From assembly GCA_034430695.1 (NCBI GenBank), contig DAOUEE010000200.1, positions 19,834 to 83,833 of the forward strand: a stretch of 64,000 nucleotides of DNA, in the 5' to 3' direction. Below, piece after piece: positions 25,233-54,177 of the stretch. Source of the DNA: Anaerolineales bacterium (lineage in GTDB: Bacteria > Chloroflexota > Anaerolineae > Anaerolineales > E44-bin32). Made by a program: the position numbers and the translations under genes. Positions within the stretch are counted from its first letter, which is position 1. Each line of letters begins with the position of its first letter. The notes under the pieces were generated by a model, which made no database searches, was not told the DNA's origin, and saw nothing but the letters and a program-made list of their open reading frames with translations.

Positions 25233-25303
25233 CTGGGGGTCGAGGATTCGAACCTCGGCTGACGGATTCAGAGTCCGCTGTCCTACCACTAGACGAACCC
25301 CCA
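25233..25303 (-). tRNA. tRNA-Gln (anticodon CUG)
   Basis: The cloverleaf folds by hand. Acceptor TGGGGGT/ACCCCCA, D-stem GTCT/GGAC, anticodon stem GCGGA/TCCGT with loop CTCTGAA, T-arm CGAGG-TTCGAAT-CCTCG, discriminator G. CCA is not encoded. Confidence 0.9.
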
Positions 25304-34486: not shown

Positions 34487-34617
34487 AATTCGAGTACCTC
34501 CGTGCGGCCAGTTCCAGATTATAGCACAGACAAGTTTAACCTTTTGCCACATCGCTGTCTATAGTTATGTAAAACGATATCCATACGCTAGTGCTACGAT
34601 GCTATAATCGCCTGGAT

Positions 34618-36099
34618 ATGGACGTCTGCCGGCAAATCGCTCTTTTCATCGGTCAGGAAGAGCTGCTCAACGACAACCAGCCGTTCGTGGCTGCAGTCTC
34701 TGGCGGGGCGGACAGCCTATGCCTGCTGCATTGCCTGCACCGTCTGAATTATCGTCCCATCGTGGCTCATCTCGATCACCAACTGCGGGAGGAAGGCGAT
34801 TCGGAGGCTCAATTTGTCCGCCAGACTGCGGCGCAGCTCGGATTGGAATGCGTGACCGAGAAAGCCGACGTGGCCGCTTTCGCCGAACGCGGGGCATCGC
34901 TCGAGGAAGCCGCCCGGATCCTGCGCTATCGCTTCTTGGTTCGAGTCGCCCGGAGCCACAGCGTGAACGTCATCGCCACGGGGCATACTGCTGACGATCA
35001 GGCAGAGACGGTCTTGATGCATTTCCTGCGCGGCGCCGGACCTTCGGGTCTGCGCGGCATGCTTCCCCGGACGGCCCTAAGCAATTGGGTCGGTATTACA
35101 GACGATGGGGGTGATCTGTCGCTGGTACGGCCGCTTCTCTGCTTGACACACCGACAGACGCTGGACTACTGTGAATCCCAGGGTTTGTCGCCAATTCTGG
35201 ATGCTTCGAATCTCGATCCCGCATTTTATCGAAATCGGTTGCGGCATCATCTCCTGCCGATCCTGGAAAACTACAATCCGGAGATCCGCAACGTGTTGAA
35301 CCGTACTGCCCAGGTGATGGCGGCGGAAGCCGCCTGGCTTGCGGATGCGGTCCAGGGACATTGGGCGTCGATTGTAAGTCCACAAGGGGTTAATGCGCTT
35401 GCGTTGCGTACGGCAGCTTTTCTGAATCTGCCGCTTGCGCTGCAGCGAGCGGTCATGCGTGAGATGATCTTCAGGCTGAAACCCAAGTCGCGCGACGTGG
35501 GCTTCGAAATCGTAGAGCGCGCCTGCCGTTTCGTGCAAGCGAAAGAAAGGGGCAAGCGGATTTATCTGGCCGGAAATCTGGTTTTGACGCGCTTTGCGGA
35601 TACGTTCCTCCTCTTCGATGGTGACACGCAGATGGCGTTTTCTGAGTATCCACAAACCATTTCCGCATCGCATAAAGAGCTTCCCATTCCCGGGAAAGTG
35701 GAACTCGCCAGTGGATGGACGCTGGACGCGATGAACATGTCCCTGACCCAAGAACTGCGGGGAACGATTTATAGCGACGAAGCCGGAAGAACGGCGGCGA
35801 TGGACGCCTCGAAAGTCGACGCGCCGCTCGTTATTCGCAGGCGAATACCCGGCGACCGCATCCGACCGCTCGGCATGAGAGGATCGCTGAAGGTAGCAGA
35901 CCTCTTTGTCAACTGCCGCATCCCACGCATGGTGCGAGACCGGTGGCCTCTGGTCACCGGAGCGGAAAAAGTGCTCTGGGTCGCGGGATTGCGAATGTCG
36001 GATGACGTACGACTCACAAAGCAGACGGAAGAAGTCATCATGCTTCGATTGCTCGATCCCTTTCAGGATGGGGGCAATTCCTTCGCTGCTGAAAGGTAA
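34618..36099 (+). CDS. tilS: tRNA(Ile) lysidine-34 synthetase TilS
   Basis: PP-loop VAAVSGGADS and a TilS C-terminal domain. ATG 34618 lies 10 nt after TATAAT (34603-34608), so the mRNA may be leaderless. GTG 34591 is an alternative start. Confidence 0.88.
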   Translation: MDVCRQIALFIGQEELLNDNQPFVAAVSGGADSLCLLHCLHRLNYRPIVAHLDHQLREEGDSEAQFVRQTAAQLGLECVTEKADVAAFAERGASLEEAARILRYRFLVRVARSHSVNVIATGHTADDQAETVLMHFLRGAGPSGLRGMLPRTALSNWVGITDDGGDLSLVRPLLCLTHRQTLDYCESQGLSPILDASNLDPAFYRNRLRHHLLPILENYNPEIRNVLNRTAQVMAAEAAWLADAVQGHWASIVSPQGVNALALRTAAFLNLPLALQRAVMREMIFRLKPKSRDVGFEIVERACRFVQAKERGKRIYLAGNLVLTRFADTFLLFDGDTQMAFSEYPQTISASHKELPIPGKVELASGWTLDAMNMSLTQELRGTIYSDEAGRTAAMDASKVDAPLVIRRRIPGDRIRPLGMRGSLKVADLFVNCRIPRMVRDRWPLVTGAEKVLWVAGLRMSDDVRLTKQTEEVIMLRLLDPFQDGGNSFAAER

Positions 36100-36103
36100 A
36101 ATC

Positions 36104-36132
36104 TTGACTGGGATTCTGGGCACAACTATAAT
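36104..36132 (+). promoter_or_regulatory. near-consensus sigma70 promoter
   Basis: TTGACT (36104-36109), exactly 17 nt, then TATAAT (36127-36132). It begins 5 nt after the tilS stop codon. Confidence 0.6.
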
Positions 36133-36138
36133 CTCGCC

Positions 36139-36460
36139 AAATTGGAAGAGCAGTATTTGGGTTTCGAGTGATTCCCGAGACCACGAAGAGGAGGTTCTCC
36201 GTCACGAGGCGGGGCCGACCCGGAAGAACCCGGGGAAAATCGAAGCTACAGCGGATGCCTCTGAAACCCGCTGCAGACTCAATTACTTCCTTCCGAGAAA
36301 ACGATGGTCTACAACTGAACGGCGAAAGATGGGACGGACTCTCCGTCGTGGCCAGGTAATTAACGGCCGTCAACGGCGATGCCGGGAGTACCTGGAAGAT
36401 CATGGAAGGGCGATATAAAGATCCAACCCCAAGGCACGCCATGCGTGCCTTATTATTTGA
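36139..36460 (+). ncRNA. candidate structured RNA or long glnA leader (family not recognised)
   Basis: Bounded by the consensus promoter and an intrinsic terminator. No SD-preceded ORF. At least five local helices: 36160-68/36174-82, 36219-23/36230-34, 36249-54/36268-73, 36333-38/36342-47 and 36352-58/36389-95. Confidence 0.4.
36431..36460 (+). terminator. intrinsic terminator
   Basis: AAGGCACGC-cat-GCGTGCCTT, a perfect 9-bp stem, followed by ATTATTTG. It lies 108 nt upstream of the glnA ATG. Confidence 0.7.
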
Positions 36461-36567
36461 CTTTCCTTTCTTGTCGGTGAAAGGAGAAACTTCGCACGGC
36501 GACCGGTGTGAACTCATACTTGTCCCGACCGCGATTGAGTTCTAAAGCAATCTTAAGGAGGAAGAAA

Positions 36568-37899
36568 ATGGTGAAAGAAGTATTGAAAAAGGTGAAGGAG
36601 GACAACGTCAAATACGTATGTCTGCAGTTCACCGACGTGACCGGGGCGGTCAAGAGTGTGGATATTCCTGCTTCCCGCGTCGAGAAGGCGCTGAAGGAGG
36701 GGGTTTGGTTCGACGGCTCGTCGGTGCACGGCTTTGCACGCATCCAGGAGAGCGACATGCGCCTTGTGCCCGATGCGGATACGTACGCAGTGCTGCCATG
36801 GTCACAACCCGAACGGCGGAGAGCCCGCCTTTTCTGTGACATCTATCAGCCGGACGGATCGTTATTCCCCGGCGATCCTCGGGGGGTCCTTAAAGGGATG
36901 CTGCAGCGGATTGAGGACCGGGGTTGGAAAGCCAACATGGGACCGGAGCCTGAATTCTTCCTGCTGCGCCGTAACGGCCAGGAGAGCATCCATCCCGTGC
37001 CCCACGATGTCGGTGGCTACTTCGACTTCTCTGCCAGCGATGAAGCCCAACGCGTTCGCACCGAGTTGATGCTTGGATTGTCGAGCATGGGACTGGAAGT
37101 TGAGATGGGCCACCACGAGGTCGCTCTCGGACAGCATGAGATCGATTTTCGATTCGCCGACGCATTACATGCCGCGGACAACGTCGTTACATTGAAATAT
37201 ACGATCCGCGCGCTTGCAGCGAAGTACGGCCTGATCGCCACCTTCATGCCCAAACCGATCTTCGGCATCAACGGTTCCGGGATGCACACCCATCAGTCGA
37301 TATTTTCTACGAAGGGAGAGAATCTTTTCTTCGACGAAAATGATGAATACATGCTTTCCCCCATCGCCTACGGATACATCGCGGGACAGATCAAGCACGC
37401 ACGAGCATTGGCCGGAATCGTTGCGCCCACGGTGAATTCCTATAAACGCATCGTGCCCGGCTATGAAGCGCCGGTTTATGTTTGCTGGGCGCAGATAAAC
37501 CGCTCGGCGATGATCCGCATTCCAAAATATTCGGGTCAGGCCAGCTCGATACGCGCCGAGCTGCGTTTCCCGGATCCGACGTGCAATCCGTATCTCGCTT
37601 TCGCCTGCATGCTGGCTGCCGGGTTGGATGGTATCGAACGAAAACTCGAATGCCCTGAGCCGGTCAACAACGTGAACATCTACGAAATGTCGCCGGAAGA
37701 GTTGGCTGCCAGGAACGTCGGCCAATTGCCCGGTTCCCTGGGGGAAGCGCTGGATGAGCTGGATAAAGATGAGGTATTGAAAGATACTCTCGGAGAAGAA
37801 GCCTACGAGGCGTTCGTGCGCGCAAAGCGCGCAGAGTGGGATGAATTCCGCATCAAAGTCATGGATTGGGAAGTCGAATACTATTTGGAGACGGCGTAG
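36568..37899 (+). CDS. glnA: type I glutamine synthetase
   Basis: Full-length GSI-like sequence (VCLQFTDVTG..., GSGMHTHQS, NSYKRIVPGYEAP). ATG 36568 lies 6 nt after AAGGAGG. Confidence 0.95.
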   Translation: MVKEVLKKVKEDNVKYVCLQFTDVTGAVKSVDIPASRVEKALKEGVWFDGSSVHGFARIQESDMRLVPDADTYAVLPWSQPERRRARLFCDIYQPDGSLFPGDPRGVLKGMLQRIEDRGWKANMGPEPEFFLLRRNGQESIHPVPHDVGGYFDFSASDEAQRVRTELMLGLSSMGLEVEMGHHEVALGQHEIDFRFADALHAADNVVTLKYTIRALAAKYGLIATFMPKPIFGINGSGMHTHQSIFSTKGENLFFDENDEYMLSPIAYGYIAGQIKHARALAGIVAPTVNSYKRIVPGYEAPVYVCWAQINRSAMIRIPKYSGQASSIRAELRFPDPTCNPYLAFACMLAAGLDGIERKLECPEPVNNVNIYEMSPEELAARNVGQLPGSLGEALDELDKDEVLKDTLGEEAYEAFVRAKRAEWDEFRIKVMDWEVEYYLETA

Positions 37900-53867: not shown

Positions 53868-53892
53868 CGTTCGAAACATTAATAAAACAAAA

Positions 53893-54177
53893 AGCGATGA
53901 CGGAGACGAGTACATCCCTGTAGGATAGCAAGCGAGTCCGGGTTGGTGTGAGCCGGATATACCCGGTGGGTGGAAAATCCCTCCAGAGCTGTGACCTGAA
54001 AGCAGTTGACACGCTACTAAGGAAACCGGCTTCGCCAGCCGTTATCCACGGCGCGAACATAATCCTGATGTTTCAGGACGTGTTCGATCGAGTGCCTGCG
54101 TCGCTGCAGGAACCGGGGTGGTACCGCGGGAGAACCGTTGCCTCTCGTCCCTATATGAGGACGAGAGTTTTTGTTTT
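53893..54177 (+). promoter_or_regulatory. class I T-box riboswitch leader (probable Ile specifier AUC) with a terminator/antiterminator switch
   Basis: Stem I has K-turn AGCGATGA (53893-53900) paired to AGAGCT (53985-53990), ACGAGTA, AG bulge AGCGAG and distal loop GGTGTGA (53945-53951). The specifier loop is GAAAATCC (53973-53980). F-box CCGTTA is at 54039-54044 and the T-box sequence AACCGGGGTGGTACCGCG at 54111-54128. The terminator is CTCTCGTCC/GGACGAGAG followed by TTTTTGTTTT (54142-54177). Confidence 0.88.

Follow-up and report, generated by a model that had tools for sequence, protein, structure and literature searches.

The glmS ribozyme (RF00234), a self-cleaving riboswitch of Firmicutes and other phyla that depends on glucosamine-6-phosphate (GlcN6P), is the textbook example of a metabolite-dependent ribozyme. 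Canonical members are described as working by cleavage, after which RNases degrade the RNA. A 2019 review places this ribozyme only in the 5' untranslated region of the glmS mRNA and attributes no structural switch to it (PMC6765202). Here we analyze 64,000 nucleotides (nt) of an Anaerolineales bacterium (contig DAOUEE010000200.1; this whole stretch is referred to as the window, and positions are counted from its first letter), in which a structured RNA of ~320 nt lies between the genes tilS and glnA. By homology, this RNA is firmly assigned to the glmS self-cleaving ribozyme class, as a diverged member that belongs to an Anaerolineae subtype. The full explanation that we favor, with confidence somewhat better than even, is that of a diverged glmS-class leader with a cleavage-coupled terminator switch, the window copy of which is probably impaired. 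A sequence-only reading of the same DNA had described an unassigned structured RNA, non-coding and bounded by a promoter and a terminator of its own; the RNA and both its boundaries stand, whereas the unassigned status gives way to membership in the glmS class.

The comparison is based on glnA loci that were fetched via GlnA from 80 species-level genomes, all of them Anaerolineales or other Chloroflexota (individual loci are denoted by L numbers). Used as a single nhmmer query, the window core retrieved relatives 5' of glnA with E values of 1e-10 to 1e-13, and after iteration, the element was present in 42 of the 80 glnA loci; tilS is located 5' of it in 29 of 34 element-carrying genome loci. 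The conserved span is the whole unit, that is, the promoter, ~330 nt, and the terminator with its strikingly conserved stem. A profile from which the window clade was excluded has a sole match in the 64 kb, at 36141-36458 (E = 5.7e-40). The link to the glmS class is provided by relatives that match RF00234 itself (gathering score, 37 bits). L020 matches this model end to end with 44.0 bits (E = 3e-9), with 57 nt of the P2-loop segment aligned against 10 model positions and, elsewhere, 25 nt against 10. Of the 18 copies tested, five match the full model at or above the gathering score (37.3-46.7 bits): L020, L055 (43.5 bits) and L016 (37.3 bits) precede glnA, L095 precedes a gltB-like gene, and L125 precedes glmS. 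The window copy is assigned to the class because it is homologous to these copies.

Like the glmS ribozyme, members of the family contain the A/GCG context (the slash marks the cleavage position), P1, the ACGAGG-N-GGAGG strand with the general-base G, AUCGA and GCGGAUGCCUCC, the double pseudoknot P2/P2.1/P2.2, P3 with P3.1, and P4 with a GNRA loop and GGACAA; some members of the same subtype also precede glmS. The conserved glmS-type blocks are A/GCG, which the Rfam glmS model aligns to its own AGCGCC, ACGAGG-N-GGAGGUU, AAAAUCGA, AUCAGCGGAUGCCUCC, and, in the P4 domain of the relatives, a GNRA-capped hairpin followed by the GGACAA purines. A manually derived structure was projected on an alignment of 76 copies, in which standard pairs occupy 92.4% of the cells, compared with 79.2% in shuffles and 38-47% with the partners slid. 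Both sides change in 50 of the 76 pairs, and double-change cells number 842 against the 278 expected. Covariation is seen in 6 of the 7 pairs of P1, 4 of the 6 of P3, 4 of the 5 of the P3.1 pseudoknot (for example, GCCAC:GUGGC is replaced by GACAC:GUGUC in L078 and by GGCAC:GUGCC in L070), all 6 of P4, all 7 of the P4 apical hairpin with its GUGA or GUAA loop, and 6 of the 9 of the terminator stem, as well as in all 7 pairs of each of two inserted hairpins, hp-a and hp-b. The folding energy of the element alone is unremarkable (z = -1.7 for the + strand and -2.1 for the - strand); the case against chance rests on this comparison. The structural conservation among relatives that the sequence-only reading had called for is found upstream of glnA, with covariation.

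The double-pseudoknot core is conserved, with family pairing of 100% in P2, 91% in P2.1, and 90% in P2.2. The segments ACGA-G, AUCG and GCGGA are invariant or nearly so across the family and map to published functional residues (the roles of core and pocket residues are taken from PMC7125110 and PMC11602151). In the ACGAGG strand, A, C, G, A and the last G, which correspond to A37-G42 of B. subtilis (PMC11602151), are invariant in the 76 sequences. Among the mapped core roles, the A•(C-G) triple, the C-G, G-C and A-U pairs of P2.1 and the general-base G are conserved, as are the P2.2 pairs C2-G56 and G3-C55 and the G and A located 3' of P2.2. C2 is kept in 74 and G3 in 75 of the 76 family members; the C2-G56 pair, whose identity is important for catalysis, is reported to be intolerant to any replacement (PMC7125110).

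Several features set the subtype apart from the described glmS ribozymes. The element is located before glnA here, and elsewhere before gltB-like genes or beside 6S RNA; the two inserted hairpins add ~47 nt to the P2 loop; the P2.2 bulge is shifted; a 12-nt pyrimidine tract between P3 and P4 pairs with the leader; and the ribozyme is joined to a terminator/antiterminator expression platform. The tract is CUCUCUCCCUUCC or a variant thereof in the family, and its pairing with the leader (P0) co-changes between clades as GGGAGA:UCUCCC, GGAAGA:UCUUCC, GGAGAAA:UUUCUCC and GGGGAAG:CUUCCCC, with the main-clade GGGAGA:UCUCCC replaced by GGAAGA:UCUUCC in L003 and L004. The leader/tract register shifts between clades, so P0 was evaluated with an alignment-free test that compares the stability of cognate and non-cognate leader/tract duplexes. 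The cognate duplexes are the more stable (z = -8.0; 0 of 2000 permutations), and the result holds within each subtype. The same tract also pairs with GGAAGGG located ~110 nt downstream (P5; 97% paired in the family, cognate test z = -10.3). This downstream segment, GGAAGGG(CG), is itself complementary to the apical part of the terminator 5' arm and the loop, and covaries with them (z = -7.5), compared with z = -0.8 for the terminator 3' arm used as a control: GGGCG occurs with CGCCC in a 27:1 ratio, GGGCA with UGCCC in a 4:0 ratio, and GGGUGC with GCACC. Such covariation is a signature of an antiterminator, and the family has a covarying alternative that is mutually exclusive with the terminator; 4 of its 5 pairs form in the window.

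In the window, positions 36104-36459 comprise a promoter, the ~320 nt RNA and a terminator and are a single transcription unit (the element and both flanking genes are on the + strand). The sigma-70 promoter TTGACT-17-TATAAT (36104-36132; 11 of 12 consensus matches) begins 5 nt past the stop codon of tilS (34591-36099; Pfam domains PP-loop and TilS_C) at 36099 and is the sole promoter-like site on the + strand within 35500-37200; transcription is predicted to start at about 36139. The intrinsic terminator (36431-36459) consists of a perfect GC-rich stem of 9 base pairs (bp), AAGGCACGC/GCGTGCCTT (36431-36451), with the loop CAU and the tail TTATTATTTG. It is followed by glnA (36554-37899), the gene presumably regulated, with the Shine-Dalgarno (SD) sequence AAGGAGG at 36554-36560, the open reading frame (ORF) at 36568-37899 starting with ATG, and the Pfam domains Gln-synt_N and Gln-synt_C. 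These landmarks, including the separate SD of glnA, agree with the sequence-only reading. Among the relatives, a TTGAC-N16-18-TAnnnT promoter is present 15-110 nt 5' of the cleavage site in 89 of 103, and in 27 of 60 glnA-linked copies, the terminator stem ends 45 nt or less before the start codon, leaving no room for a separate promoter, which argues for action in cis.

In the mechanism that we propose, the tethered leader of the uncleaved RNA would hold the pyrimidine tract; with the tract occupied, the switch segment GGAAGGGCG would be available as an antiterminator, and transcription would continue into glnA. When the cofactor, most likely GlcN6P, is abundant, the ribozyme would cleave; GlcN6P, which is made from glutamine by GlmS, would report nitrogen sufficiency. 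Upon loss of the leader, the tract would capture GGAAGGG, the terminator would form, and glnA would be switched off. We infer all the steps beyond the base-pairing covariation. A partition-function model of nested structures was applied to 73 transcripts truncated at the terminator loop, with the leader present or deleted to mimic cleavage. In this model, the probability that the switch GGG pairs with the tract rises from 0.47 with the leader to 0.72 without it, and the probability that it pairs with the terminator 5' arm drops from 0.38 to 0.15; the modelled antiterminator probability is greater with the leader in 37 sequences, and the reverse holds in 5. The model favors read-through of the uncleaved RNA and termination of the cleaved RNA, which is the same sign as in the canonical glmS feedback. 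As in terminator/antiterminator riboswitches (T-box, purine, SAM-I), an upstream segment, for which a sensor strand also competes, can sequester the terminator 5' arm in a three-way relay. Unlike in those riboswitches, the apparent trigger is irreversible self-cleavage that removes the competing strand rather than ligand-induced refolding.

Beyond these elements, the 5' leaders share a motif, ACAAYUGAAUA, which is located ~10-25 nt 5' of the cleavage site, ahead of the P0 strand, in the majority of copies of every subtype (for example, at 2643-2653 of L020), and is often preceded by a variable 5'-terminal hairpin. The motif is absent from the window copy. In part, the sequence before the switch segment resembles the leader (AAUAUCGGGAGA versus AAUAUCGGAAGGG in L020).

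Part by part, the window copy combines intact and degraded components. The 5' leader (36139-36152) includes GGAAGA (36144-36149), the P0 5' strand that pairs with the tract at 6 of 6 positions. The cleavage position A-1/G1 (36152-36153), predicted by homology to glmS, aligns with the family A/GCG, and the window copy departs from the A-1/G1 C2 G3 context: C2 is replaced by U (36154) and G3 by A (36155), yielding A/GUA at 36152-36155. The 5' strand of the P2.2 pseudoknot (36153-36160) is GUAUUUGG in the window versus GCGUAUGG in the family, and 4 of the 6 P2.2 pairs form, with a U2-G wobble and an A3xC mismatch. The P1 hairpin (36161-36181) retains 6 of 7 pairs. The core strand ACGAAGAGGAGGUU (36183-36196) contains the P2.1 5' strand CGA (36184-36186), the putative general-base G (36188), and the P2 5' strand GGAGG (36190-36194); the active-site nucleotides A36183, C36184, G36185, A36186 and G36188 are kept, and G is changed to A at 36187 specifically in the window clade. 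Two subtype-specific hairpins, hp-a (36197-36214) and hp-b (36219-36235), are inserted in the P2 loop. The following segment, AAAAUCGA...CAGCGGAUG-CCUCU (36236-36262), consists of columns that are invariant or nearly so in the family and includes AUCG (36239-36242), the P2.1 3' strand UCG (36240-36242; P2.1 3/3 paired), the P2.2 3' strand (36248-36253), and the P2 3' strand (36258-36262; P2 5/5 paired); GAUC is changed to CUAC at 36247-36248. The cofactor-pocket nucleotides, AUCG as well as G36254 and A36255, which line the pocket according to PMC7125110 and PMC11602151, are kept in the window and conserved in all three subtypes described below.

The peripheral domain of the window copy is partly degraded, with the switch largely spared. 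P3 (36263-36281) is degenerate, with 2 of 6 positions paired versus 98% in the family, but its loop GCUGC (36270-36274), the 5' strand of the P3.1 pseudoknot, pairs fully (5/5) with the 3' strand GUGGC (36348-36352) at which the ribozyme body ends. Between them are the pyrimidine tract (J3/4), UACUUCCUUCC (36284-36294), a partner of both the leader and the downstream GGAAGGG, and the degenerate P4 domain (36296-36347), where 5 of 7 pairs of P4 and 3 of 7 of the apical hairpin form. The CCAGGUA...UACCUGG hairpin enclosing GCCG-UCAA-CGGC (36352-36395), which the sequence-only reading had also recognized, appears from the sequence to be a spacer between the ribozyme and the switch segment (36404-36412); its counterpart in the relatives is CAGG...CCUG with a variable interior. 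The switch segment has two alternative partners, the tract (P5, 7/7 paired in the window) or the terminator 5' arm and loop (antiterminator); the terminator is paired at 9 of 9 positions, and in the platform, only the U tract is interrupted (UUAUUAUUU in the window; the interruption is seen in the window clade, compared with an unbroken run of 4 or 5 Us in most relatives). Relative to the glmS ribozyme, this copy is missing C2 and G3, and its P3 and P4 hairpin are broken. Given these degraded helices and the substitutions at core positions known to matter for catalysis, cleavage is probably poor or absent; the copy is likely to be a weak or inactive ribozyme and may be mostly a read-through leader.

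Two other interpretations of the interval were considered and rejected. The sequence-only reading had proposed that the duplicated TCCGTC (36198-36203 and 36343-36348) could pair alternatively with the single GACGGA (36334-36339). All three segments are present, but the relatives do not keep this pairing; in the family model, the first TCCGTC forms one arm of an inserted hairpin, and the second is the P4 3' strand. A small protein was discarded as well, given that no ORF in the tilS-glnA interval matches a Pfam family, in line with the original observation that the interval has no SD-preceded ORF, and that substitutions track helices rather than codons.

A scan of metagenome contigs with a subtype-specific pattern detected at least 120 loci. 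The downstream gene is glnA in at least 49 of these, glmS in at least 23, a glutamate-synthase-like gene (PF01645) in at least 15, an Ada/MGMT-type regulator in at least 12, an EamA transporter in at least 5, and another or unidentified gene in at least 5; in at least 11 loci, the contig is too short to assign it. The nucleotides at positions +4/+5 define three subtypes that sort with the gene class. Among the matches listed, GCGCA copies precede glmS (16), SIS-domain (2), DegT aminotransferase (1), glnA (2) and Ada/MGMT (1) genes; GCGUA copies precede glnA (38) and gltB-like genes (7); and GCGGC copies precede glnA (40), gltB-like (7), Ada (10) and EamA (5) genes, with no case of GCGUA or GCGGC before glmS. 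L125 is an example of GCGCA, L020 of GCGUA, and L078 and the Anaerolinea thermophila leader of GCGGC. The single-stranded core outside +4/+5 is identical across the three subtypes, so GlcN6P is still to be taken as the default cofactor, and a changed ligand is the less probable option. L118 and L160 are exceptions to the subtype rule: both are GCGCA-type copies, yet the gene that follows is a distant glnA paralogue whose product shares only 48% identity with the window GlnA. No fetched locus contains two copies of the element, and neither a second copy nor glmS or gltB genes were found within the 64-kb window.

The glmS-linked copies lack the terminator, and their tract is instead complementary to the SD region of glmS, over up to 11-12 bp (-31 kcal/mol); loci of this kind include L086, L134, L187, L125 and L121, with, for example, the tract AUCCCCUCCUGG complementary to the SD region CAGGAGGGGAU. 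The tract-SD duplexes are strong in several of these copies (-15 to -32 kcal/mol), and the cognate test was not significant but underpowered (n = 12; 432 of 5000 permutations). These complementarities suggest that, in glmS-linked copies, cleavage controls sequestration of the ribosome-binding site.

The glutamate-synthase-like genes downstream of the element (L094-L096, L104, L106, L130, L141, L147, L168, L179, L181, L188 and L200) are of two kinds, one encoding a protein of ~470 amino acids (aa) that starts with '..RYHIET..WPTRF', and the other a protein of 827 aa with the full PF01645 domain. In several of these loci, tilS is located 5' of the element, as it is in the window.

Several observations weigh against the interpretation of these RNAs as glmS-class leaders with a cleavage-coupled terminator switch. 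Column-based covariation of P0 is weak, blurred by a shift of one nucleotide in register from clade to clade; the overlap of P0 and P5 is no more than 1-3 nt in some registers, so that the two might coexist; and the antiterminator is short (5-6 bp). On the window copy, the folding model shows no clear behavior and does not reproduce the switch, and the 116-nt gap between the terminator and glnA would accommodate a separate glnA promoter, although none is predicted there. Furthermore, the ribozyme part of this copy has diverged from its closest relative, L001, almost as fast as fourfold-degenerate glnA sites (75% and 72% identity, respectively). Such near-neutral divergence, together with the changes at 16 of the 88 columns that are conserved in at least 93% of the other sequences, the broken P3 and P4 hairpin and the interrupted U tract, would be expected if the window copy were a relic, that is, a decaying, non-regulating leader, with glnA expressed through leaky read-through or from another promoter. 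Indeed, in the sister genome L002 (2777-2889), whose GlnA is 96% identical, the element lacks the ribozyme body from P3 on, such that the residual core abuts the terminator, a truncation that is evidence of element decay in the window clade. We nevertheless consider a relic unlikely: the promoter, P0, P5, the antiterminator and the terminator are intact, the platform is more conserved than neutral sites (83% versus 72% identity with L001), and compensatory changes inside the clade preserve the pairing of hp-a and P1; the element shares 69-70% identity with those of L003 and L004, compared with 45-46% for fourfold-degenerate sites. The pattern is likeliest to reflect relaxed selection on catalysis in the small clade of the window, with the leader and terminator hardware retained, as the impaired-switch explanation holds. 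Cis regulation in general is further put in doubt by the copies adjacent to 6S RNA, which are followed by varied, unrelated genes (Ada/MGMT, EamA, ABM) and fit a stand-alone RNA. If all copies were independent stable small RNAs acting in trans, for instance, through the tract on SD sequences, and merely syntenic with glnA, this variability downstream of the N2-type copies that adjoin 6S RNA would be accounted for, along with the dedicated promoter and terminator and the anti-SD-like character of the tract. This option, which the sequence-only reading had also raised, loses ground for the glnA-linked copies, where the terminator abuts the glnA start in the 27 of 60 cases and the antiterminator covaries; the tract is paired, with covariation, within its own molecule, and the association with glnA and gltB-like genes recurs in differing neighborhoods. 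Altogether, a role solely in trans appears improbable.

The remaining doubts concern the ligand and the class. That the nitrogen-gene copies belong to the same family but respond to a changed cofactor, such as glutamine or another nitrogen-status amine, is suggested by the location of the gene-class-sorting +4/+5 nucleotides in P2.2, near the active site, and in other riboswitch classes, a single pocket-adjacent change has switched the ligand. The core nucleotides that contact GlcN6P in published structures are, however, among those identical in the three subtypes, and the +4/+5 difference can also be read as a shifted P2.2 bulge, which is tolerated in mutational data (PMC7125110), or may simply mark old paralogous lineages, so a changed cofactor seems to us quite unlikely; if real, such a change of ligand would be the first among natural glmS-class variants. 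The sequence-only reading had instead suggested a nitrogen-related riboswitch or attenuator, or, in its strongest form, a new nitrogen-metabolite RNA unrelated to known families. Consistent with this form, and counting against the glmS assignment, is the result that no Rfam model gives a relevant match to the window copy at the gathering score or at E <= 10 (36050-36620), including the T-box (RF00230) and glutamine riboswitch (RF01739) models that the sequence-only reading had been unable to fit by eye; weak FourU and TeloSII hits were dismissed as chance matches to the terminator and the glnA start region. The search itself was sensitive to a true T-box located elsewhere in the window. Because the subtype lies at the edge of Rfam detection, a more diverged copy such as that of the window is missed: the confident Rfam hit that the sequence-only reading took as contradicting it is lacking for the window copy, whereas the homologues L020, L055 and L016 produce one. 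The chain of homology to RF00234 contradicts an unrelated origin, and the family possesses the glmS core motifs and pseudoknots, which makes this form of the proposal exceedingly improbable. An attenuator of glnA remains the most likely function; a new nitrogen-metabolite aptamer is unsupported, considering that the glmS active site and the GlcN6P pocket are conserved. The glutamine riboswitch (glnA RNA motif, RF01739) resembles the present element in being an RNA tied to nitrogen-assimilation genes, but differs wholly in size and fold, with no Rfam match and no relationship in sequence or structure.

In 11 loci, a 6S RNA gene (RF00013, 62-85 bits) is located on the same strand, 5' of GCGGC-type copies, at a distance that ranges from a slight overlap with the annotated 3' end to ~160 nt. 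These genes are found on the - strand in L081 (2616-2792), L135 (718-895), L184 (2786-2963) and L149 (1154-1330), and on the + strand in L156 (318-495), L113 (5710-5887), L145 (574-750), L193 (1394-1571), L084 (914-1090), L139 (272-446) and L144 (1121-1300). One possibility is that the ribozyme processes the 6S transcript or terminates it; another is that the two RNA genes form a conserved pair. Elsewhere in the window, two other RNA features, both unrelated to the element, were identified: a tRNA gene at 25233-25303 on the - strand and the T-box leader at 53888-54155 on the + strand (RF00230; 93.1 bits, which only just reaches the gathering score).

More broadly, and only tentatively, we envisage a glmS-class regulon of coenzyme-dependent ribozymes in Anaerolineae that would act on glnA, glutamate-synthase-like genes and glmS, a generalization that we regard as possible but doubtful. 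In all these cases, by what would be a new mechanism, cleavage would discard the leader that masks the tract, and the tract would then capture the antiterminator (glnA and gltB-like genes) or the SD (glmS); the nitrogen-gene copies might, in addition, have changed the cofactor, and the copy in the window would be a naturally occurring derivative, disabled in catalysis, that retains the switch hardware.

A full-text literature search found no reports that link the glmS ribozyme with glnA, glutamine synthetase, Chloroflexi or Anaerolinea (a 2011 expanded survey was outside its scope), and as far as we have checked, both the nitrogen-gene context and the expression platform are new for the glmS class. 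With the Rfam model at its detection limit, the subtype is under-annotated in Chloroflexota genomes. Should the proposed mechanism prove true, GlcN6P or a related amine would be a nitrogen-status signal in Anaerolineae, and RNA self-cleavage would be coupled directly to transcription termination. Natural glmS-class subtypes in which the +4/+5 nucleotides track gene function would then provide a handle on ligand specificity.

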